Shown here: positions 1 to 42,975 of the stretch, piece after piece
Layout: each line of letters opens with the position of its first letter
Position numbering within the stretch: position 1 is the first letter of the stretch
Assembly: GCA_048939265.1 (NCBI GenBank)
Contig: JBHLPQ010000002.1
Location: 1 to 60,641 of the forward strand
Direction: 5' to 3'
From: Promethearchaeota archaeon
Lineage (GTDB): Archaea; Asgardarchaeota; Heimdallarchaeia; Hodarchaeales; Hodarchaeaceae
Length of the DNA: 60,641 bases
The notes under the pieces: generated by a model
The model's input: only the letters and a program-made list of their open reading frames with translations
Told to the model about the DNA's origin: nothing
Database searches by the model: none
Translations under genes and position numbers: made by a program

Positions 1-230
1 CACAAAGGCTTTTTAATGTTGGAGAGGTAATAATATCTACTAAATCATCCTCAATATCTTTAAAAAAATCTAAAAGCACAATATTTAGAGAACTAATCGG
101 ATCTATCACGAATCTTACTTCCAGAAGAGAGATTTCAAATCTAGGAGAAATCAATTTACATTTAAAAAAATATCACTTTTTTCTGAGCTATTGAAATCGA
201 TAAGAAATTTTATAAATACTATATAAATAT

Positions 231-4281: not shown

Positions 4282-4572
4282 TCATTGATTATTTAAATTC
4301 AGATAATTCTGTCGGATTTTGTGTATATTTTTCCATGATACCTCCTCTTCTACAGGTATTTCATTCATTAACTCTAGAACTGTCTTTAAAACCTGATTAA
4401 TAGGAATATTCTTCTCATCCTCTTTTATTATCAATTTGACAGTCTTCATTGAAGATGATTTCTTGATCTTACGGTTTTTTGGGGGAAATTTTTGCTTAGG
4501 TAATAACAACTGGACAGCCTTCAAATTTACCACATCATTAACTACTGAAGAAGGAAGAATATAATTACCCAA
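4282..4572 (-). CDS. Hypothetical small protein upstream of the ATPase gene
   Basis: 96-aa ORF with TTG start; alternative ATG at 4449 gives 55 aa. Same strand as and 98 nt upstream of ORF 2039-4183. No recognisable domain. Confidence 0.35.
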   Translation of the reverse strand: MGNYILPSSVVNDVVNLKAVQLLLPKQKFPPKNRKIKKSSSMKTVKLIIKEDEKNIPINQVLKTVLELMNEIPVEEEVSWKNIHKIRQNYLNLNNQ

Positions 4573-5089
4573 AAATGAGAGGCATCTTCTTTTTCGAGTG
4601 CATTTTCAATAGATTTCTCCTATTTCGACTTCTATTTCATCTTCATATTGTTTAAGGTGATACATGAAACGAAAAACCACCTCTATTTCGACTTCAATTT
4701 CAATCAGTATCAATTTGAATACCAAAGCGAATACTTTCATCCATTCTAGGGAATAAAACCGACTTATTTATCTTCTTATTCAGTAATAATGAACCCTTCT
4801 AGCGCGTGGAATTAGGTTGTTATCGCATTCTTAGATGTAATCCTCTTCTCATAAGAATTGATTTCTGAATAAAGCAAGAGGTAGAGACATTTTACTTACG
4901 ATTTAATCCTATGAATTCTTTGAAAAATTAGTCTCTCAGGATGGATGTTAAAAGCAAGAAAGAGTTATAGAAATTAGAGAACAAATCTATGAAAGTCATC
5001 ACAGTTTTGAGTATAAAAGCAGTATAGGATAATCAAAGATACAAGTAAAGAATATTGAAAAGTGGAAAGAAATGATCAAAGTTGAGAGT

Positions 5090-5331: not shown

Positions 5332-6867
5332 GTGGTTCGTCCAGGCCGCGAGAGTTTTAAACGTTTTATCAGCACTATTATGGATTTATTACCACCTTAT
5401 ATTGAAAAATATCCACCCTCTGACCAACTTCTGTTGAGGGAGTTTCTATCAGTCCTTCGACACTATGATGAAGCTGACTATCAACGAAAGAAGCTATCCC
5501 AGCGATTCAGAGAATACATTGATAGACATTTCAACACTGATCAATACTTACAAACTGCTTTTCTCTGGTTCACTGATACATACTTTAGAAATGCATATAG
5601 ATTATTAACTGTCTCAAAATTTCACGCAAATTCCTATTATGAATACTTGGTAAAACATTTACGGGGGAGCTCCAACATTCCAGGGGTTTTTAAACTGATA
5701 CAGAATAAAGTTTCAATTACAAATCTTGCTTGGGAGCAATTACAATATGAAAGTGTTAAACTTATAGTTCCCCTTACAATTGACCAATTACAAATCATTT
5801 CAACTGTTTATTCTGCTGTTATGGAAGAAGGAGTTCACGCTTTAGATTCTCGAAAACTGAGAGCGCTTATCGGAAATCAGGTGGGCTCTCCAAGAAATTT
5901 AAATGATGAGCTCATCCGTTTCTTTAATTTAATAGATGGACAGTGGGTATATCGTTTTTTTACGCCAGCTTTTGGATTAGATATGGTTATTATGCAAATT
6001 CAACTAGATGGATCCGTTTCTCTAGAAGAGATTATTGATTTTCAAAACCCCGCGAATACAGTTATTAGTAGAAGTGATGTATATCTAGTTAGAAACTTGC
6101 CAAATACCTATATTGGGATATTAAGCGTCCCTACTCAAGATTTTGAACAATTAAAAGGATATCTTCAGGAATGTGAACATCAGGGAAGATTAATCTTAAA
6201 AAGCTTAGAAAAAATAGAAACAAGGAGATTTAGTAGTTCTCTAGCACATTATCGTACGAACACAGGTTGGTTTGAACCAAGTCCATCTAGAATGCGGAGA
6301 TTAGCACAGTTATTAAGGACTCAAAATCCGAGAGAAAACCAGGGACAGTATTCTTCACTTTTCATTCCACCTCAATTTAACTCTCATTGGCATTTCAGCG
6401 ATCATCCTCTTCCTAGAGAGATCATCAATCTTTTCTGTAATATATCCCTTCATACATACACATATCAAAATCTTCCTTTAACCAATCAAGATCTCTTCTC
6501 ACTTACGCAAGCTGATGTTGGTTTATTAAAGCAGTTATTTTATAACCGAGTTTTACAAGTCAGGTTTGTCCCCCAGCGATTGTTGGATGAGTTTTCACTT
6601 GACTTATACTGTATAATTCTACCCAAAATCCCAGTTTACCAGTTAATACACTTTTTAAATTTAATTCCAAATAGTGATGTATATTATACTGAGGAATCAA
6701 TCTATGTGTGGGGTCGGTTTACTTCCAAACTTATCCAATGGATCGAAAATAATCTTCAATGGACTGTATTGCAGATAATACGAAAAAATATTCCCTTAAA
6801 CTTTGAATTTAATCAATTTGATCCAGGGGAACTTCAGTGGATAACCCCACAGTTCTTGAGAGAATGA
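5332..6867 (+). CDS. Family-A paralog 2
   Basis: 511 aa, GTG start (MVRPGRESFKRF); roughly half identical by eye to the 21502 and 30711 copies; same block order as all five. Confidence 0.9.
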   Translation: MVRPGRESFKRFISTIMDLLPPYIEKYPPSDQLLLREFLSVLRHYDEADYQRKKLSQRFREYIDRHFNTDQYLQTAFLWFTDTYFRNAYRLLTVSKFHANSYYEYLVKHLRGSSNIPGVFKLIQNKVSITNLAWEQLQYESVKLIVPLTIDQLQIISTVYSAVMEEGVHALDSRKLRALIGNQVGSPRNLNDELIRFFNLIDGQWVYRFFTPAFGLDMVIMQIQLDGSVSLEEIIDFQNPANTVISRSDVYLVRNLPNTYIGILSVPTQDFEQLKGYLQECEHQGRLILKSLEKIETRRFSSSLAHYRTNTGWFEPSPSRMRRLAQLLRTQNPRENQGQYSSLFIPPQFNSHWHFSDHPLPREIINLFCNISLHTYTYQNLPLTNQDLFSLTQADVGLLKQLFYNRVLQVRFVPQRLLDEFSLDLYCIILPKIPVYQLIHFLNLIPNSDVYYTEESIYVWGRFTSKLIQWIENNLQWTVLQIIRKNIPLNFEFNQFDPGELQWITPQFLRE

Positions 6868-6931
6868 AAGATAATGTAAAGTTCAGAAAAAAAAAAGAAA
6901 AGGGAAGTTGTTCTTAAATGATTTGCCTTAT

Positions 6932-6967
6932 TCATAGTGTGGGTTCGCCGCCACCAGGAGGGAGCAT
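6932..6967 (-). CDS. Candidate convergent micro-ORF (11 aa: MLPPGGGEPTL)
   Basis: ATG 6967. Minus-strand TATA-like TTAATAAAGG (about 7008-6998) lies ~30 nt upstream, with GGTGAAAAACC just before the ATG. A-run 6887-6896 is a T-run on the minus strand next to the A2 stop. Confidence 0.35.
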   Translation of the reverse strand: MLPPGGGEPTL

Positions 6968-7239
6968 GGTTTTTCACCACATCCCCATTCCACAACGCCT
7001 TTATTAACTCCCAAAATCATTCTAGTAAGTTTATCCTTACTTTAGGCAAATATAAATATACCTAAGAATGTATGAGAATATTAGCAGGTTTATTTAAAGA
7101 AACAGATTGTTTAGACATCTGTATTATCATTTTGACATCACATTTCTAGTATCATAAATAGCTTTTAATCTCACGAAAATAAGACGATTATTTTTCACAG
7201 AGATAACTGAAAATGACGAACTATAATTTTGTACGCGCT

Positions 7240-21501: not shown

Positions 21502-23040
21502 ATGAGTAGTGAGATGGTTCGTCCAGGTCGGGAGAGTTTTAAACGCTTCCTTAAAACCATTCTTAACCAGCTACCAGCTCATGTTGAACAATATATAGCA
21601 CAAGATCAAGAATTGTTGAACGATTTCTTATCAGTACTTCAACATCATGAAGAGGCTGAATTTCAGAGAAAAAAACTTTCAAAGCGGTTTGAAAGGTATA
21701 TTAAGAGCATTTCTGGAACGGATCAATACTTACAAACTCCTTTCCTATGGTTTTCTTTCACTTACTTTTCTAATGCAAGATTATTGTTAAGTGTATCAAG
21801 ATTTCATGCAAATTTATTCTATGAATACTTGGTAAAACATCTTCGGGGTAACAATGGAAATCCTGGAGTTTATAGGCTAGTATGTGAAAATACTCCCTTA
21901 TCAGATCTCACATGGGAGCAATTACAGCATGAAAGCAATAAACTCATTGTCCCACTTACTGAAGACCAACTACAAATATTAAATACAGTATATTCTTTTA
22001 CTAAGGAAGCAGGAATATATTCATTGGATCCTCAGAAGCTTCGAGAGGCTATTGTTAAACAGGTGAGTTTTCCAAGAAACCAGAAGCCATTTGATGAGCT
22101 AAAACGATTTTTCACTCGTGTTAATGGACGGTGGGCCTTACATTTCTTTTCCCACGTTTTTGGTTTGGATCGTTTAAATATCCAGATAGAACTCCAAGAA
22201 TCTACTTCATTAGAGGAAATAATCGATTTTAATGACACTGAAAACACGGTCTTAACCATAAGCGATGTATTTGAAGTTAGGGGTCAAGCAGAGAATTATA
22301 TTATGACCCTATATGTCCCCATTCAGGCAGTTGACTGTCTAGAAAGATATTTTCTGAATCGTGAGAAAGAGAGATCCTTAATCCTAAAGGACATGTCAAG
22401 GGTAATAACCACTAATATAAGTGCCTCTCTAAACCAGTATAAAGCGAATGTTGGATGGATTGAACCAACACAAACGCAAATACAAAGAATCACACGAATA
22501 TTAAGATCAACACGACCCCCCAACTCTAAACTCTTCTATCATCCACCGTTTAATAATCATTGGGATTTCAAACAGCACCCACTTCCCGTTGAGATAATTA
22601 AGCTTTATAGTAATATCCCCTTAGATTATTCATACTCCAATCTACCATTAAACAATCATCAGGATTTGACACATCTGACTAGAAAAGAAATTGGGCTGTT
22701 AAAGCAATTATATTATAATAGAGTAGTGTACACGGGATTTGTCCCATGGCGATTAGTATACGAATTTTCACTTGATTTATATGGCATAAATTTACCTAAG
22801 ATCCCCTTTATCCAGCTTCAACAGTTCTTAATTCTGATTCCCTTTAGCCAAATCTATTTCACAGAGAAATTAATTCATATTCGTGCTCGTGTAACTCCTA
22901 AACTCGTTCGTTGGATAGAAAGAGACCTTGAATGGACGATTTTTCCAATAATAAGGAAACAATATCGTCTTGATCTTGAGTTTAATTGGTTTGATTCAGA
23001 ATTACTTCAGTGGAGAACTCCAGGAATTATAGACCAATAG
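21502..23040 (+). CDS. Family-A paralog 3
   Basis: 512-aa ORF; probable start is ATG 21514 (MVRPGRESFKRF). Confidence 0.9.
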   Translation: MSSEMVRPGRESFKRFLKTILNQLPAHVEQYIAQDQELLNDFLSVLQHHEEAEFQRKKLSKRFERYIKSISGTDQYLQTPFLWFSFTYFSNARLLLSVSRFHANLFYEYLVKHLRGNNGNPGVYRLVCENTPLSDLTWEQLQHESNKLIVPLTEDQLQILNTVYSFTKEAGIYSLDPQKLREAIVKQVSFPRNQKPFDELKRFFTRVNGRWALHFFSHVFGLDRLNIQIELQESTSLEEIIDFNDTENTVLTISDVFEVRGQAENYIMTLYVPIQAVDCLERYFLNREKERSLILKDMSRVITTNISASLNQYKANVGWIEPTQTQIQRITRILRSTRPPNSKLFYHPPFNNHWDFKQHPLPVEIIKLYSNIPLDYSYSNLPLNNHQDLTHLTRKEIGLLKQLYYNRVVYTGFVPWRLVYEFSLDLYGINLPKIPFIQLQQFLILIPFSQIYFTEKLIHIRARVTPKLVRWIERDLEWTIFPIIRKQYRLDLEFNWFDSELLQWRTPGIIDQ

Positions 23041-23084
23041 AAAAAAAAGAAGAAAGGAGGAGGTAACTTCTAACAAGTTAAACC

Positions 23085-23120
23085 TCATTTTGGATTATCT
23101 CCACCATCTTGCGGGGGCAT
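23085..23120 (-). CDS. Candidate convergent micro-ORF (11 aa: MPPQDGGDNPK)
   Basis: ATG 23120. Minus-strand TTTATAAA (23155-23148) lies 27 nt upstream, with GGTTGAAAAAAAG before the ATG. A hairpin AGGT(TT)AAC..GTTACCT follows, then a T-run (= A-run 23041-23048) abutting the A3 stop. Confidence 0.35.
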   Translation of the reverse strand: MPPQDGGDNPK

Positions 23121-23374
23121 CTTTTTTTCAACCTCGAGTATTTTGCCTTTATAAACACCCAAAAATTCTGAAGAGAAACCTTCTTTTTCGCAGATTGCAC
23201 CATTAAAAGCACCTAAATATTCGTGTTTTAGGCAAAAACCACTATTTCTGAAAAAAATGATTTATAAACCTAACGGAATCGAGATCTTCCCTTAACCATT
23301 ATAAGGATCCAAATTTGGCAAATCCCCGAAATTAACAAAATAGGGAGGTAATGAAATCACCTAGCGATACTAAT

Positions 23375-23462
23375 CTGAAGAAGAACTCCAACAAACACCT
23401 TTCGGATCGACAACCGAGAATCCGTCATATTGACAGCGGAGCTAACTTATCTGGGATATAAC
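23375..23462 (+). other. Conserved non-coding block shared with 42329-42442
   Basis: CACCTTTCGGATCGACAACCGAGAATCCGTCATATTGACAGCGGAGCTAACTTATCTGGGATATAAC is ~87% identical over 67 nt to the block after paralog 5. It contains nested inverted repeats TCGG..CCGA and CGGAT..ATCCG. Confidence 0.6.
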
Positions 23463-23580
23463 ATAGAAAATGTGTTCTTTGAGGCGGGGGATTTCGAAGG
23501 AAAGACGCTCACAGGAGAAATCAAGCGAGATAAGGATTTCTATCAATAGATAGTCGATTAATAGTGTAGATCGGTCATTA
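23445..23580 (+). repeat. R element-like, degenerate
   Basis: ACTTATCTGGGATATAAC...GGATTTCGAAGGAAAGACGCTCACAGGAGAAATCAAGCGAG...CGATTAATAGTGTAGA parallels the R order (ACTTG.., hairpin region, AATCAAGGCG, CGATTAGTGGGAG). Confidence 0.4.
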
Positions 23581-30710: not shown

Positions 30711-32315
30711 TTGAAAAGAAAATTAGGATTAGTGTTTCCAGTTCTCTCCTTTCGTGAGGTGAGCAATATAGTGGCACGGCCTGGTCGAGAGAGTTTTAAA
30801 CGTTTTATTAAAACAATTCTCGAACAAATTCCCCCCTATATTAAGGGATACTTACCATCAGATCAAACTTTATTGACAGAATTCTTCTCAATTCTCGAAA
30901 ATTACGAGGAGGCCGATTTTCAGAGAGATAGACTCTCACAACGAATCGAAAAATACATTGAAGGGATTTCTGAAACACCAGAACTCATAGAGAAAGCATT
31001 TCTTTGGTTTACATACTTCTATATACAAAATGCGGATACTTTATTGAATATTTCTGGATTTCACGCCGACTCCTTTTATGAATACTTAGTTAAACATCTC
31101 AGGGGGAGTGGGGACACTCCAGGAGTATTCAATCTGATTCGCCAGCAAGTACCACTGACAAATCTGGCATGGGAAAAATTACAGTATGAAAGTAACAAAC
31201 TCATCTATCCTCTTTCAGAACAGCAACTACAAATCATACACGCTCTATACTCATTTATTAAAAAAGGGGGAATAGACGCCCTAAATCCACGAAGAATTAA
31301 AAAGGCTATAACAAACCAAGTACCTTTTCAGTCGAATGAGAAACCAGCCACCATACTTTCACGGTTTTTTAAATTCATTAATGGTTCTTGGTACTTACGT
31401 TTTCATAGTCCTGCCTTTGGTTTGGATCGTTTGGCTTTTCATTTTGAAGTAAATAAAGGGAGGTCGCTAAGTGACATAATCGACTTTCTTGACTCAAGTT
31501 CCACGGTGTTAGGTTATAGCGCAATATACTATGATCGAAACAATCCCAAAACCCATTTTGGTACATTAGTTATCCCAATAGAAACAATTAACCAGTTAAC
31601 AGAGTATCTTCATCAACGAGACGCAGAAGGAGCTATCAACCTAATTGATTTAACAAAAATAAACAGCATACATCGAAAGGTGTCGTTTGAAAAGTATGAA
31701 ATAGGCACTGGATGGGCACAGCTGAAAAAAACGGAACAGCAGCGATTAACCGATCATATAAAGGCGAAAAATCCTCGAAAAATGAGAAAACCAGCTGCAT
31801 TATCATTCACTACTCCAGACTATAACATTGACTGGAATTTCAGGGATCATCCCTTACCCTCTGAAATCATTCAATTGTATTGCAGAGTTCCAGGCGAATT
31901 TTCGTATTCGTCACTACCAATCCAACCAGTAGATAGACAAAACGCGTTTACACTCTCGCAAGCAGAAATCGGGTTATTGAAACAATTACTCTATAACCAT
32001 GTGGTTCATATTGGATTCGTCCCATATCGTCTAGTTTATGAATTTGCATTGGATGCCTATTGGATTAAAATCCCCCAAATTCCCCAAATTCAATTGAAAA
32101 AATTCCTAAACATATTACCATATTGTGAATACTATCTTACTGATTCTTCTATTCTGGTATGGACGAGATTAACTCCCCAATTGAGACAATGGATAGAAAA
32201 GGACCTCCTGTGGGAAATCTATCAACTCCTACCAACACATCCTCCACAAGAATTGAAAGAGGAATGGTTTGATGACAATAATCTCATGTGGATTCCACCT
32301 GAATTTCTCCAGTAA
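30711..32315 (+). CDS. Family-A paralog 4
   Basis: 534 aa in the track; probable start is GTG 30771 (VARPGRESFKRF), preceded by GAGGTGA. Confidence 0.9.
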   Translation: MKRKLGLVFPVLSFREVSNIVARPGRESFKRFIKTILEQIPPYIKGYLPSDQTLLTEFFSILENYEEADFQRDRLSQRIEKYIEGISETPELIEKAFLWFTYFYIQNADTLLNISGFHADSFYEYLVKHLRGSGDTPGVFNLIRQQVPLTNLAWEKLQYESNKLIYPLSEQQLQIIHALYSFIKKGGIDALNPRRIKKAITNQVPFQSNEKPATILSRFFKFINGSWYLRFHSPAFGLDRLAFHFEVNKGRSLSDIIDFLDSSSTVLGYSAIYYDRNNPKTHFGTLVIPIETINQLTEYLHQRDAEGAINLIDLTKINSIHRKVSFEKYEIGTGWAQLKKTEQQRLTDHIKAKNPRKMRKPAALSFTTPDYNIDWNFRDHPLPSEIIQLYCRVPGEFSYSSLPIQPVDRQNAFTLSQAEIGLLKQLLYNHVVHIGFVPYRLVYEFALDAYWIKIPQIPQIQLKKFLNILPYCEYYLTDSSILVWTRLTPQLRQWIEKDLLWEIYQLLPTHPPQELKEEWFDDNNLMWIPPEFLQ

Positions 32316-32358
32316 TGAAAAAAAGGTAGGAGGGGGGAGTGGATATAGAATTTTAACT

Positions 32359-32391
32359 TTATTTGGGAGGAGGAGAACCTGGTGGAGGCAT
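32359..32391 (-). CDS. Candidate convergent micro-ORF (10 aa: MPPPGSPPPK)
   Basis: ATG 32391. Minus-strand TTCTTAAAGA (32433-32424) lies ~32 nt upstream, with GGTGAAAAATAAA before the ATG. CTGGTG..CACCAG inverted repeat spans the start. A-run 32319-32325 is a T-run on the minus strand. Confidence 0.35.
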   Translation of the reverse strand: MPPPGSPPPK

Positions 32392-32589
32392 TTTATTTTT
32401 CACCAGTTCTCTATTCCGTACAGTCTTTAAGAACACCCAACATTTACCCAATGGACTATTAATTGAGTTTTTTAAGATTTGAAATTTACCAATTGCCATT
32501 CACAGTCTTTTCCACGCGCTCCATATAAGCTCCCAAGCAAAAGTGTACACTATCACTGAGACATGAGTTATAAAACAAAAGCCCTGCAG

Positions 32590-40474: not shown

Positions 40475-42016
40475 TTGGTAAAAAGAATCGAAGTACTCAA
40501 AAAATTCATTGTGACATTTGTTGACCAGGTACCAAAATACCTTTCCCCTTATTCCTTATCAGAAAGGAAATATATAATTGAATTACTTGATTTACTTAGA
40601 CTCTGCGAATCTCAAGCGGATATTGCCAGAGAAGAACTCTCCACACGTTTGGAAACCTATTGTACTCAGCTTAAAAATGGAAAGGATTACTATTCCACCC
40701 CATTCTTGTGGCTTACAGAAATCTACTTCGATAATGCAAATCTGTTCCTTAGAGTCGCCGATTTCCATGCGTCCAATTTCTATGATTTCCTAGTTCAGGT
40801 CATTAGAGGATTTGCTGACTTACCAGGACTTTTTCAACTCATTCGCGAAGGAACGTCTTTACAAGACTTAAAATGGGAAAAATTACAATATCATGTTATT
40901 AACAGTTTTAAATTCCCGCTAACAGAGGAAGAACTAATAACAATAAAGGAGCTTTATTCATTTATTTATTCAGCTGGAATTGATGGATTTGATCAAAAAA
41001 GTATAGCTATTAATTTGAAAGCAAAGCAAGGGATGTCGGAAAGAAAATACAAAGATTTCATACAATTATTAAATCTATTAGATGCGTTATGGAGTTTTTT
41101 CCTATATTTACCAGCATTTGGTCTTAGATATTATTATGCACATTTCAATTTGAAAAAGCTATATTCATTAGAAGATATTTTTGATTTTTTCGATGCTACC
41201 AATACAACCCTTTGTCACAGTCGAATATATAGAATAGACAAATTTCCAAACAGTTTTATGGGATATTTAGTGGTCCCTATGAATAAATGGGACAAATTGA
41301 GAAATTACTTTCATAAATGTGAACGTCAAAACAAGTTAAAATTAATAGAGTTAACAGAGATACGAGACATTTATAGAAGTATTTCTCTTTCAAATTATCA
41401 TGCGGGAAAAGGTTGGCCAACTCTTTCTTCTAAAGAAATTAAGGATTTAGTTCAACAATTGACTGTGAAACATCCTCGGAAGTTAAAGAAAAAGCATCCT
41501 GCGTTGTTTCACGATAAACCTTATAACCATGATTGGGACTATAAAAAGGGCCGGGATCCAAAACAGATAATTTCCCTGGTATGCAAAATACAACGGAAAT
41601 TCTCTTATGAAACCTTACCAATTAATTCTGAAAATGATAAAATCGCTTTCTCCAAGTCTGAGATAGAAATTTTAGAGAATTTAATCCAAAATAAACTCTG
41701 CCAACCATTTTTTTCATTAGATCACATCCGTTATGAATATTCTATTGATGTTTATTCGATTAGAACGCCTCATATGCCTATAAAACAGATCTCACGCCTT
41801 TTAAGGGTTCTTCCATCTGCTCATCTAAACATAATGGAGAATTCAATCGTTATATGGACTCATCTATCATCACAAGATAGGAAATGGATAAAAGAAGAGC
41901 TAGGATGGGAACCATGGCATATTATACCATATAAACGTCAGCAGGCTCTTGATTATACTTGGTTTAACTCTAAAACACTCCAATGGAGCCCTCCCAAAGT
42001 TTTCGAGGATTTATGA
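40475..42016 (+). CDS. Family-A paralog 5 (diverged)
   Basis: 513 aa, TTG start (MVKRIEVLKKF); same block order (FHASNFYDFLV..IRG, PAFGL, DIFDF, GYLVVP, GW, HPRK, YEYSIDVY, LQWSPP). Confidence 0.85.
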   Translation: MVKRIEVLKKFIVTFVDQVPKYLSPYSLSERKYIIELLDLLRLCESQADIAREELSTRLETYCTQLKNGKDYYSTPFLWLTEIYFDNANLFLRVADFHASNFYDFLVQVIRGFADLPGLFQLIREGTSLQDLKWEKLQYHVINSFKFPLTEEELITIKELYSFIYSAGIDGFDQKSIAINLKAKQGMSERKYKDFIQLLNLLDALWSFFLYLPAFGLRYYYAHFNLKKLYSLEDIFDFFDATNTTLCHSRIYRIDKFPNSFMGYLVVPMNKWDKLRNYFHKCERQNKLKLIELTEIRDIYRSISLSNYHAGKGWPTLSSKEIKDLVQQLTVKHPRKLKKKHPALFHDKPYNHDWDYKKGRDPKQIISLVCKIQRKFSYETLPINSENDKIAFSKSEIEILENLIQNKLCQPFFSLDHIRYEYSIDVYSIRTPHMPIKQISRLLRVLPSAHLNIMENSIVIWTHLSSQDRKWIKEELGWEPWHIIPYKRQQALDYTWFNSKTLQWSPPKVFEDL

Positions 42017-42069
42017 ATACCTCTATTAAAAAAAAGGGGGAGAGAGTTGGTTTAAACATTAATAAACGC

Positions 42070-42102
42070 TCATTCCATTCCACTTGGATCTTTTGGGGGC
42101 AT
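42070..42102 (-). CDS. Candidate convergent micro-ORF (10 aa: MPPKDPSGME)
   Basis: ATG 42102. Minus-strand TTTTAAAA (42137-42130) lies 27 nt upstream, with GGTTGAGATTTAAG before the ATG. A-run 42029-42036 is a T-run on the minus strand. Confidence 0.35.
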   Translation of the reverse strand: MPPKDPSGME

Positions 42103-42328
42103 CTTAAATCTCAACCTTGAATTTATTGCTTTTAAAAACGCCCAAAAGTTCCTGGATGTCTTCTTCCTTGGAATCTTCGCTATTGTAAGCACCCACAGAT
42201 ACTCTTGAAAGCGTTTTCTGGTCTACAATAGCAAAATTCCTTTTAACATCCAAAAAATGCCTTAAAAACACCCTAATTTCTAATCATCAGAAAGGAAGGA
42301 GATATTGAATCCCACAATTAATACTAGT

Positions 42329-42442
42329 CTGAAGAAGAGGCACCAAAAGGAGTGAGACCAAAACATGAAAGAGAACACCATTCGGATCGACAACCGAAAA
42401 TCCGCCATATTAACAGCAGAGCTAACGTACTTGGGGTATAAC
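42329..42442 (+). other. Conserved non-coding block shared with 23375-23462
   Basis: CTGAAGAAGA..[40-nt insertion]..CACCATTCGGATCGACAACCGAAAATCCGCCATATTAACAGCAGAGCTAACGTACTTGGGGTATAAC. The overlapping 60-aa minus-strand ORF (42280-42462) is not conserved in the paralog 3 copy, which has a stop. Confidence 0.6.
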
Positions 42443-42497
42443 GTACCTGACGCTAGTTCCACTCAATTTCCAATCAAGTCGCCCTTGTGTGGAGTCC
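42425..42497 (+). repeat. R element copy (5' part shortened, 3' end degenerate)
   Basis: ACGTACTTGGGGTATAACGTACCTGACGCTAGTTCCACTCAATTTCCAATCAAGTCGCCCTTGTGTGGAGTCC is near-identical in its centre to the 49724 copy. Confidence 0.65.
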
Positions 42498-42606
42498 TTG
42501 AATGCTTGAACTGGAATTTTCCATCATTTAAATAACCATTAATTTTAAGTCAAGAATACTATATAGAAAACTATTAATAGAGCTATAGATAGATTTATAG
42601 ATAAAG

Positions 42607-42975
42607 GTGACTTCCTTGGAAATCTCAGAACTTCAGTCAAAATGGGAAATCGAATTCAAGAAAGGATTTGCAAAACCCCTGATTCTATTGATACTCGCTG
42701 AAAAGGAAAATTATCCTTATCAAATTACTAAAGAAATTTTTACAATCACACAGGGCCAGCTTTCGATTGCTACCTCCAATATTTATCCAATTCTCAAGAA
42801 TCTCAAGGAGGAGGGAATGATTTCTGAAAATAAAGACATCAAAACACGGAGAATAATGTATCAGATTACTAAGAAAGGATTAGCCCTTTCAAAGAGTATT
42901 ACTTTTTCTCTTAACAGTTTTATTACTGTTTTACGGGAGGTAATCAATCTCAAAGGAGTTGATATGAAATCATGA
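42607..42975 (+). CDS. PadR-family transcriptional regulator
   Basis: 122 aa; NYPYQITKEIFTITQGQLSIATSNIYPILKNLKEEGMI. Confidence 0.8.
   Translation: MTSLEISELQSKWEIEFKKGFAKPLILLILAEKENYPYQITKEIFTITQGQLSIATSNIYPILKNLKEEGMISENKDIKTRRIMYQITKKGLALSKSITFSLNSFITVLREVINLKGVDMKS

Follow-up and report, generated by a model that had tools for sequence, protein, structure and literature searches.

The 60,641-nucleotide (nt) stretch analysed here, referred to throughout as the window, is the first part of contig JBHLPQ010000002.1 from a Promethearchaeota archaeon of the Hodarchaeales (assembly GCA_048939265.1), and carries, at a G+C content of ~37%, five plus-strand paralogous genes termed family A (A1 to A5). 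Directly past the stop codon of A3 lies a 120-nt stretch (23041-23160) which, together with four sister copies, on balance seems to be a complete and self-contained micro-gene. Judged from comparison of the copies, its parts would be a TATA-type box with a TTTGGGTG element, a Shine–Dalgarno-like (SD-like) GAGGT or GGTGA motif, a micro open reading frame (micro-ORF) encoding a peptide of the form M(x)PP, and an oligo-T terminator-like tract that, where the layout is convergent as usual, ends at the A stop codon. In no case does the micro-ORF appear in the called-gene tables of the related loci, and no description of the module was found in the literature on Asgard small ORFs (sORFs), polyproline or aIF5A leader peptides.

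The module in the window and in related loci

The copy following A3 (21502-23040, plus strand, 512 amino acids (aa), the query for all searches) displays an anatomy common to 26 distinct modules. Read along the minus strand, it begins with the promoter-like box TTTTGGGTGTTTATAAAGG (23146-23164; given as TTTATAAA in the sequence-only reading), which reaches the window's top score against a position weight matrix (PWM 26.0) and has a TATA-like part that stops 26 nt short of the ATG. The SD-like motif GAGGTTGA (23128-23135) follows, 7 nt before the ATG, and then the micro-ORF itself (23085-23120), MPPQDGGDNPK, encoded as ATG CCC CCG CAA GAT GGT GGA GAT AAT CCA AAA TGA. A short hairpin (dG -4.8, z -2.05) and a CCTCCTCC..T8 tract occupy 23039-23084 and end at the A3 stop codon, the order thus being box, SD-like motif, ORF, hairpin and CCTCCTCCTTTCTTCTTTTTTTT up to the A3 stop.

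The five minus-strand micro-ORFs lie exactly where the sequence-only reading, made from the letters of the window without database searches, had placed them, and encode the peptides it had given; their stop codons fall 43-69 nt past the family-A stop in all five copies. The signals that it had described around them are likewise present. A TATA-like box upstream of each micro-ORF ends 26-33 nt before the start codon, GAGGT, GGTGA or GGTTGAG is found 6-8 nt before the start in 5/5 modules, and each carries a T-run of 7-10 beside the A stop, 34-63 nt after the micro-ORF stop and 0-19 nt from the A stop. The observation is genuine and goes far past what chance would give. The whole 60.6-kb window was scanned on both strands for (ATG or GTG)(NNN)0-1 CCN CCN in an ORF of 8-13 codons, an SD-like motif being counted if it lay at most 20 nt upstream of the start, and the matches were the five family-A micro-ORFs and nothing else, all five with an SD-like motif, as against a mean of 2.66 matching ORFs, and 0.06 with an SD-like motif, in first-order Markov shuffles.

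Alignment of the 130 nt after the five A stops places the TATA-like boxes within a longer conserved 19-mer, TTTTGGGTGTTTATAAAGG, in which the distinctive TTTGGGTG element stands just 5' of the TATA-like box. The four best matches to the 19-mer PWM in the window (21-26) are the modules of A2 to A5, the A1 copy being degenerate (<9). SD-like motifs (GAGGT, GGTGA, GGAGG) precede all five micro-ORFs, compared with 3 of 33 long ORFs (window ORFs of >=150 aa with mechanical start codons) and 4% of random 19-mers. Across modules, all three signals (promoter-like box, SD-like motif and oligo-T tract) keep their positions.

The comparison took in 28 related loci, from Hod-, Heimdall-, Thor- and Promethearchaeota assemblies, and covers 30 distinct A-homologue 3' ends. 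The micro-ORF module is present at 27 of these, the exceptions being L025, in which only 101 nt follow the stop, L028, which is too short to judge, and P0068 (loci L021/L022), the most divergent member at 29% identity, which has no module and is followed after 126 nt by co-directional genes. Within the 268 kb made up by the window and the related loci, SD-bearing matches to the pattern occur only beside A homologues; a copy in L014 that has no adjacent A gene shows a weaker GCGAGATTGA upstream, and the pattern did not score an SD-like motif there. The tie of a conserved module to family A, which had been proposed on the five copies of the window, holds at 27/30 3' ends overall, and the comparison shows that the module was passed down along with A paralogues that are old and stable in the chromosome, in genomes of the Heimdall group, Thor- and Promethearchaeota.

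Two observations on the upstream signals may be added. The rarity of SD-like motifs before long ORFs could mean that most genes are leaderless or weakly SD-led, or that many of the mechanical starts are wrong. Extra, weaker TTTGGGTG-TATA copies are seen on the minus strand at 23200-23218, 23296-23314, 32520-32538 and 42259-42277 (score 15.7), as well as in L004 (1758+77/+166), L010 and L014, amounting to ~17 copies versus ~5 expected (background 0.45 per kb per strand), with spacings that include 51-60 and 96 nt. These upstream copies of the TTTGGGTGTTTATAAAGG box may serve as tandem promoters or as an array that binds a regulator, which might be A itself. An array resembling clustered regularly interspaced short palindromic repeats (CRISPR), or another tandem array, was considered for the repeated boxes and rejected, there being only short two-copy repeats at irregular spacings.

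Coding constraint and the module as a self-contained unit

The micro-ORF is 9-12 codons long and always opens with Met-(one optional residue)-Pro-Pro. Start, open frame and stop are kept in all 26 distinct modules, the start codon being ATG in 24 and GTG in the other two, an orthologous pair, and the differences in length are all whole codons. Pro-Pro at codons 2-3 or 3-4 is invariant (26/26), and any residue between it and Met is N, L or S, inserted as exactly 3 nt (AAC/AAT, CTC, AGT, TCT). The codons for the two prolines vary at the wobble position, the first being CCC in 14, CCT in five and CCA in one of the first 20 modules, and the second CCT in ten, CCA in nine and CCG in one. Similarly, MPPQDGGDNPK of A3 and MPPKQDGGNPK of L027, whose A proteins are 39% identical, are related by two in-phase 3-nt indels. 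In a substitution test over a minimum-spanning set of nearest-neighbour ORF pairs, nucleotide differences at codon positions 1, 2 and 3 numbered 32, 29 and 49, and synonymous versus non-synonymous changes came to 23/44 in the ORF frame compared with 7/60 and 5/61 in the other frames (12/121 together; Fisher test, p=2e-5). Because the detection pattern forces CCN CCN, the test was repeated without the start, inserted and Pro codons, giving 15/42 in frame versus 8/96 in the other frames (p=0.002).

The claim that the ORF is kept as an ORF while its nucleotides change is thus borne out by wobble variation, 3-nt indels and a frame-specific synonymous excess, and the ORF is intact at all 27 module-bearing 3' ends. 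By the comparative measures used for protein-coding sORFs, the reading frame is under selection. The predicted peptides are hydrophilic, with 31% Pro, 17% Gly and hardly any hydrophobic residues (P 68, G 37, D 16, N 14, and L/I/V/F 13 in all, of ~230 residues).

The module is antisense to the A 3' untranslated region (UTR) in 25 of 27 loci, where the sequence downstream of it is A antisense. In L007 (Thorarchaeota, A 30% identical), however, a complete module shares the strand of A and, 436 nt beyond its stop, reads TTTGGGTATTTAAA .. AAAGGAGGTctgaccg ATG CCC CCA AAC GAA CCA ACT GGC CAA TGA .. CCCTCCTCCTGCTTCTTTTTTT; its peptide MPPNEPTGQ differs from MPPNEPLQP of the Heimdall locus L017 by changes that are partly synonymous. 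L027 holds a degenerate minus-strand micro-ORF overlapping the A stop (4540-4600; MPPRVPNRFLDS) and an intact plus-strand MPPKQDGGNPK (4700-4790), 159 nt downstream of A and on the same strand. A co-directional acetyltransferase gene follows ~200 nt after the stop of the L027_4554 micro-ORF, the only locus of this kind; the L027 pair looks like the product of a duplication or inversion and, in that locus, resembles a classical leader. The third case is a complete minus-strand micro-gene in L014 (2661-2693), MPPQDGIPR with a hairpin GGAGATTCTCC and T8, for which tblastn detected no A remnant on the expected side, the nearest A gene lying ~600 nt off and divergent.

In L007, L027 and L014 the box, SD-like motif, ORF and CTCC..T-run tract travel together, and in the two same-strand modules the coding constraint persists. 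The intact same-strand modules and the copy without A therefore argue for a self-contained micro-gene and not merely a feature of the A 3' UTR, and the pyrimidine/T tract, being kept in the other orientation or without A, belongs to the micro-gene and not to A. The cis-antisense pairing with the A 3' UTR that had been proposed is accordingly the usual state (25/27) but not an obligatory one, as these three loci show. In L024 (1960-2480), the last ~60 codons of A have undergone a partial tandem duplication along with the module, with MPPQDGGNGGM and MPPQDGGNGGH 430 nt apart, one module each. In L020 (14950-16527) a second A copy, 30% identical, appears as two called genes (146 aa and 369 aa) and is maybe disrupted; its module, MPPIIPGPDPD, is still intact and has a strong hairpin of the terminator-like kind.

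The remaining window copies follow the same plan, all module parts being on the minus strand and all A genes on the plus strand. A1 (231-1841; 536 aa from a mechanical TTG start, 38% identical to A3) has a weak GGGAG with the TATA-like box ATTATATTTA (1982-1996, PWM score <9), ~32 nt before the start codon by hand count and kept in sequence in the orthologous L026_11497 module; SD-like GGAGGT/GAGGT (1958-1970) lie 8 and 15 nt before the GTG start of its micro-ORF, VSPPPGGTGPYQ (1911-1949), the L026 ortholog of which, VSPPLGGTGPDQ, likewise starts with GTG. Its pyrimidine tract and T8 run (1840-1874) overlap the A1 stop codon, and A1 is syntenic with L026 10001-11497, a DUF87/HerA gene being next in both. 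Past A2 (5332-6867; 511 aa) are the box TTTTGGGAGTTAATAAAGG (6998-7016; PWM 23.6, its TATA-like part ending 31 nt before the ATG), GGTGA (6974-6978) 6 nt before the ATG, the micro-ORF MLPPGGGEPTL (6932-6967), with orthologs MLPPRGNEPTD (L008/L009) and MLPPDGNDPKVP (L006), and a pyrimidine tract with a T10 run (6885-6907), 19 nt from the A2 stop and with no predicted hairpin; the syntenic copies in L017 and L026 are followed by a 130-aa gene and SatD. The A4 gene (30711-32315; 534 aa from a mechanical TTG start) is followed by a module with the box TGTTGGGTGTTCTTAAAGA (32424-32442; PWM 21.2, ending 33 nt before the ATG), GGTGA (32400-32404) 8 nt before the ATG, MPPPGSPPPK (32359-32391) and a CTCCCCCCTCCT tract plus T7 run (32318-32339), 2 nt from the A4 stop; related modules encode MPPQDGSPPSQ (L016), MPPQSGSPPCQ (L010/L019) and MPPEGSPPGH (L026). 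A5 (40475-42016; 513 aa), at 31% identity to A3 the most divergent copy of the window, has the box TTTTGGGCGTTTTTAAAAG (42129-42147; PWM 23.5, ending 27 nt before the ATG), GGTTGAG (42110-42116) 7 nt before the ATG, MPPKDPSGME (42070-42102) and a CTCTCTCCCCC tract plus T8 run (42028-42046), 11 nt from the A5 stop.

RNA structure, transcript overlap and candidate roles

The sequence-only reading had allowed for a structured small RNA (sRNA) whose CCACC..GGNGG core only looks coding. This structured-RNA explanation is not supported. RNAalifold gave 0 consensus pairs on either strand, for the presumed transcript or with 75 nt of upstream sequence, single-sequence fold z-scores are weak (mean -1.06), and Rfam returned no match at gathering score over the whole window or at E<=1 for 22990-23300. 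A C-box-like ATGATG was seen by eye in a minority of modules only, a consensus scan found no bacterial-type intrinsic terminator in the A3 module, and ARAGORN found neither a tRNA nor a tRNA-like att site. Predicted duplexes between the module RNA and the 5' region of its cognate A gene were no better than those with non-cognate A, at -31.5 compared with -30.3 kcal/mol (standard deviation 6.6) and with uniform ranks, so that the test for paralogue-specific trans pairing was negative.

The proposals on termination stood for some copies and not for others. A3 has a hairpin before its T-run, but overall one is clear in only ~9 of 24 modules, and a plus-strand run of at least five T (T5+) at the micro-ORF start is found in three of the five window copies but only in 8 of 22 convergent modules, the 'bidirectional terminators' suggested earlier applying to these eight and not to the remaining convergent modules. 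Of the 22 convergent loci, 12 have their first A-strand T5+ run beyond the micro-ORF, five have it before or inside the micro-ORF, and three have none within 400 nt; the geometry is compatible with transcript overlap in 15/22. Since most loci have no oligo-T stop on the A mRNA before the micro-ORF, the convergent transcripts would therefore overlap by ~80-100 nt.

Two explanations would deny that the micro-ORF is a gene in its own right. One takes it for the C-terminal tail or remnant of a longer minus-strand gene, the 'TATA box' then being coding sequence (..EFLGVYKGKILEVEKK-MPPQDGGDNPK in A3). The A3 frame is indeed open for 47 further codons upstream (2-40 codons in other copies), and its EFLGVYKGKILEVE-like upstream stretch resembles the equivalents in L014 and A5, being by eye alike in amino acids, with 3-nt indels and some synonymous changes. 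However, the A3 upstream frame contains no ATG or GTG start, the upstream frame is out of the micro-ORF frame in L014 and L004 and in A5 stops short of the ATG, there are in-frame stops in L003, L004, the window copy at 6867 and L009, and it is the micro-ORF itself that stays intact at all 27 module-bearing 3' ends. The candidate was rejected because upstream frames differ between loci and have in-frame stops and no start codon; it is largely refuted and very improbable, and the upstream stretch is conserved DNA that holds the promoter-like box, and often one or two further copies of that box, not conserved coding sequence. The other explanation holds the ORF to be incidental, the conserved thing being an sRNA, a termination or insulator element for A, or a protein-binding site, with a GGNGGNCAT core that is merely coding-like. 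The strongest conservation does lie in short nucleotide motifs (TTTGGGTG-TATA, GAGGT/GGTGA, ATGCCNCC and CTCCCC-Tn), information content after the Pro codons has no clear 3-periodicity, the purine-rich 5' part can pair with the pyrimidine 3' tract in many single-sequence folds, and the extra upstream TTTGGGTG-TATA copies look like a protein-binding array. Nevertheless, an incidental ORF is improbable, although less so than a longer gene: neither strand shows a consensus structure or covariation, Rfam has no match at E<=1, no cognate-specific complementarity to the A 5' region was detected, and a pure DNA or RNA motif leaves the 3-nt indels, the start codon in 26/26 modules and the frame-specific synonymous changes unexplained.

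Granted a micro-gene, its role may tentatively be sought in regulation, the module acting as a cis-linked regulatory sORF of A. Translation at the start of Met-Pro-Pro involves bond formation that depends most strongly on EF-P/eIF5A, as established in bacteria and eukaryotes. Translation of the micro-ORF would need just this bond formation at codons 2-3, the most aIF5A-dependent step, and the dwell of the ribosome at the 5' end of the small RNA would set the share of that RNA free to pair with the A 3' UTR; alternatively, the small RNA might be read through into A as antisense, and either way A expression would be tuned. A narrower and clearly less probable version has the stand-alone Met-Pro-Pro micro-ORF sense the status of aIF5A, hypusine, polyamine or proline. 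Gene control of this archaeal kind would be coupled to translation, the ribosome's time on codons 2-3 deciding between termination and clearance of the small RNA and its pairing with, or reading into, A. If this were true, each A paralogue would have its own translational-status switch at its 3' end. Several points weigh against a regulatory sORF in cis. The two same-strand modules and the A-less copy are intact without an antisense relation to A, synonymous changes also occur beyond the Pro-Pro site, and RNAalifold and the hairpin and terminator scans found no alternative terminator/antiterminator structures. Transcription from an own promoter, termination and translation are deduced from motifs and comparison, and the leader is perhaps only ~4-14 nt, given a distance of 26-33 nt between the end of the TATA-like box and the start codon, so that the SD-like motif may fall outside the RNA in several copies.

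The intact modules without an antisense relation and the synonymous changes beyond Pro-Pro are fitted better by a trans-acting peptide than by pure cis-antisense or stalling control. On this view the Pro/Gly-rich peptide of 9-12 residues would be released and, acting in trans, serve the A protein encoded next to it as a cognate ligand, as a substrate or as a regulatory partner. Every A paralogue would keep a peptide gene of its own, in a convergent position inherited from an ancestral unit of A plus module. This possibility, itself uncertain, is rated almost as likely as the cis-regulatory sORF. It would account for selection beyond Pro-Pro (the 15/42 in frame versus 8/96 out of frame), for an N-terminal MPP[QK]DGG that is better conserved than A (MPPQDGGDNPK/MPPKQDGGNPK with A at 39%, MPPQDGGNGGH with A at 37%), for tails kept within orthologous groups (VSPP.GGTGP.Q, MLPP.G.[ED]P, MPP..GSPP) and for modules that are intact in either orientation and without an adjacent A. 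The scarcity of hydrophobic residues and the Pro near both ends of the peptide also suit it, as Pro in these places would resist exopeptidases, and the structural model of A contains predicted ACT/RAM-like ferredoxin-fold domains, usually ligand-binding, although the fold matches are weak. On the other hand, A has no recognisable enzyme or peptide-binding domain, partner genes are usually co-transcribed and not convergent with a separate promoter, and the C-terminal half of the peptide varies in sequence and length. Ribosomal products of such shortness that stay free and unprocessed are very rare (microcin C7 MccA).

Family A and comparison with known systems

Family A consists of uncharacterised ~510-residue proteins, the window copies being 31-54% identical to A3. 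An index of 5.8 billion proteins yielded 68 relatives, all unnamed proteins, whose stated hosts are Hodarchaeota/Hodarchaeales, Heimdallarchaeota, Thorarchaeota or Promethearchaeota assemblies, and an exhaustive profile search among 1.84 billion clusters gave 187 representatives, nearly all with the same ~500-residue architecture. No match was found in Pfam, for single proteins or all 63 members, in PADLOC or by PDB sequence profile. The AlphaFold2 model of A3, built from 63 sequences, has a mean pLDDT (predicted local distance difference test) of 92.9 and a pTM (predicted template modelling score) of 0.89, and consists of a helical N-terminal half and, after it, alpha/beta domains. A Foldseek search of the PDB gave no match at E<=0.001, the best local fold matches being ACT domains (phenylalanine hydroxylase, the acetohydroxyacid synthase (AHAS) regulatory subunit) and Lrp/AsnC RAM-type domains, which at E 0.018-0.3 are weak. 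The model thus gives a weak hint of a ligand-binding or regulatory role, and A is perhaps a new domain architecture, expanded to at least five paralogues per genome. A mobile element, a virus and the end of a transposon or insertion sequence were rejected: there is no transposase domain, no member occurs in viral contigs, and the paralogues are not near-identical (30-54%) and are syntenic between genomes. Being old and positionally orthologous, the A paralogues are therefore not a mobile element.

The surroundings of A genes hold a few further observations. In L021 (10001-13435) and L022, P0068 heads a co-directional cluster with a 93-aa protein, an Arf/Ras-like GTPase, a metallophosphoesterase and AliA/AliB, and in L015 and L018 genes for Arf/RagA-like GTPases are found some kilobases upstream of A. 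In two genomes a gene for an S9 peptidase of the prolyl-oligopeptidase type (Peptidase_S9_N + S9; L017 1629-3740, L026 16659-18740) stands directly upstream of the A2-type orthologue, divergently, and it is absent from this place in the window; it is an intriguing neighbour given the Pro-rich micro-peptide. A small plus-strand ORF is conserved ~350 nt after the A3-type and A5 copies (23390-23549 and 42365-42535; also in L003, L004 and L014). The A5 copy encodes 56 aa, MKENTIRIDNRKSAILTAELTYLGYN..., and is followed by a 122-aa ORF (42607-42975) and then an RDD-family membrane protein. The A3 copy has the conserved frame without an ATG, an SD-preceded ATG at 23351 being in another frame, which suggests a frameshift or pseudogene.

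If real, the micro-gene would be among the shortest protein-coding genes conserved by selection (27-36 sense nucleotides), coupled to a Heimdall-group Asgard family that has a confident predicted structure and no fold relatives. It would offer a handle on family A, through either a cognate Pro-rich peptide or 3'-end control by a translated antisense micro-gene, and a simple system in which to test how archaeal translation is controlled through Pro-Pro and aIF5A. The micro-gene escapes gene callers altogether, a reminder of what Asgard genome annotation omits.

Compared with known systems, the module shares with type I toxin-antitoxin loci a small ORF, a predicted antisense overlap with a neighbouring transcript and several copies per genome. 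The toxins of those loci are, however, hydrophobic, membrane-active peptides of ~20-60 aa, whereas the peptide predicted here has 9-12 hydrophilic, Pro/Gly-rich residues and no membrane helix, and its partner is the gene of a 510-aa protein instead of an sRNA. As with cis-antisense RNAs and convergent 3' ends, a small opposite-strand unit stands directly past the A stop and, judging from the sequence, in most loci probably overlaps it in transcription, but the micro-gene differs in having a conserved reading frame under selection and in surviving inversion and the loss of an adjacent A. Stand-alone minimal peptide genes include mccA, with seven codons for the microcin C7 precursor, and the Methanosarcina gene for sP26 (23 aa), a small archaeal regulatory protein. 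The likeness to these lies in a tiny ORF that brings along translation signals, is genetically linked to a far larger partner gene and encodes a peptide sequence under selection, the product here being a predicted one. In contrast to mccA-type loci and those for ribosomally synthesised and post-translationally modified peptides, A has no recognisable modifying-enzyme domain or known partner domain, the layout is convergent and not operonic, and there is no leader/core organisation.

Leader peptides that use Pro codons are represented by mgtL/mgtP of Salmonella and by EF-P-dependent leaders, and eIF5A- and polyamine-sensing upstream ORFs (uORFs) by those that end in PPW (AZIN1 uCC). The micro-gene resembles both in its very short ORF with consecutive Pro codons as the most conserved part, an SD-like motif before it and an oligo-T tract after it, and a coupling to EF-P/aIF5A activity is plausible. 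Unlike leader peptides, however, the micro-ORF is not upstream of a co-directional gene in 25/27 loci, being convergent and having its own promoter-like box; it is archaeal, its Pro-Pro lies at codons 2-3 where that of known Pro leaders is internal or terminal, and it lacks the mutually exclusive terminator/antiterminator hairpins of leader attenuators. The micro-gene would work most like a Pro-codon leader peptide or eIF5A-sensitive uORF, yet it falls outside the definition of an attenuator. Set beside all of these systems, the module is classed as a conserved sORF, either regulatory or coding for a micropeptide, that stands alone in an unusual convergent layout and is strictly tied to a single protein family.

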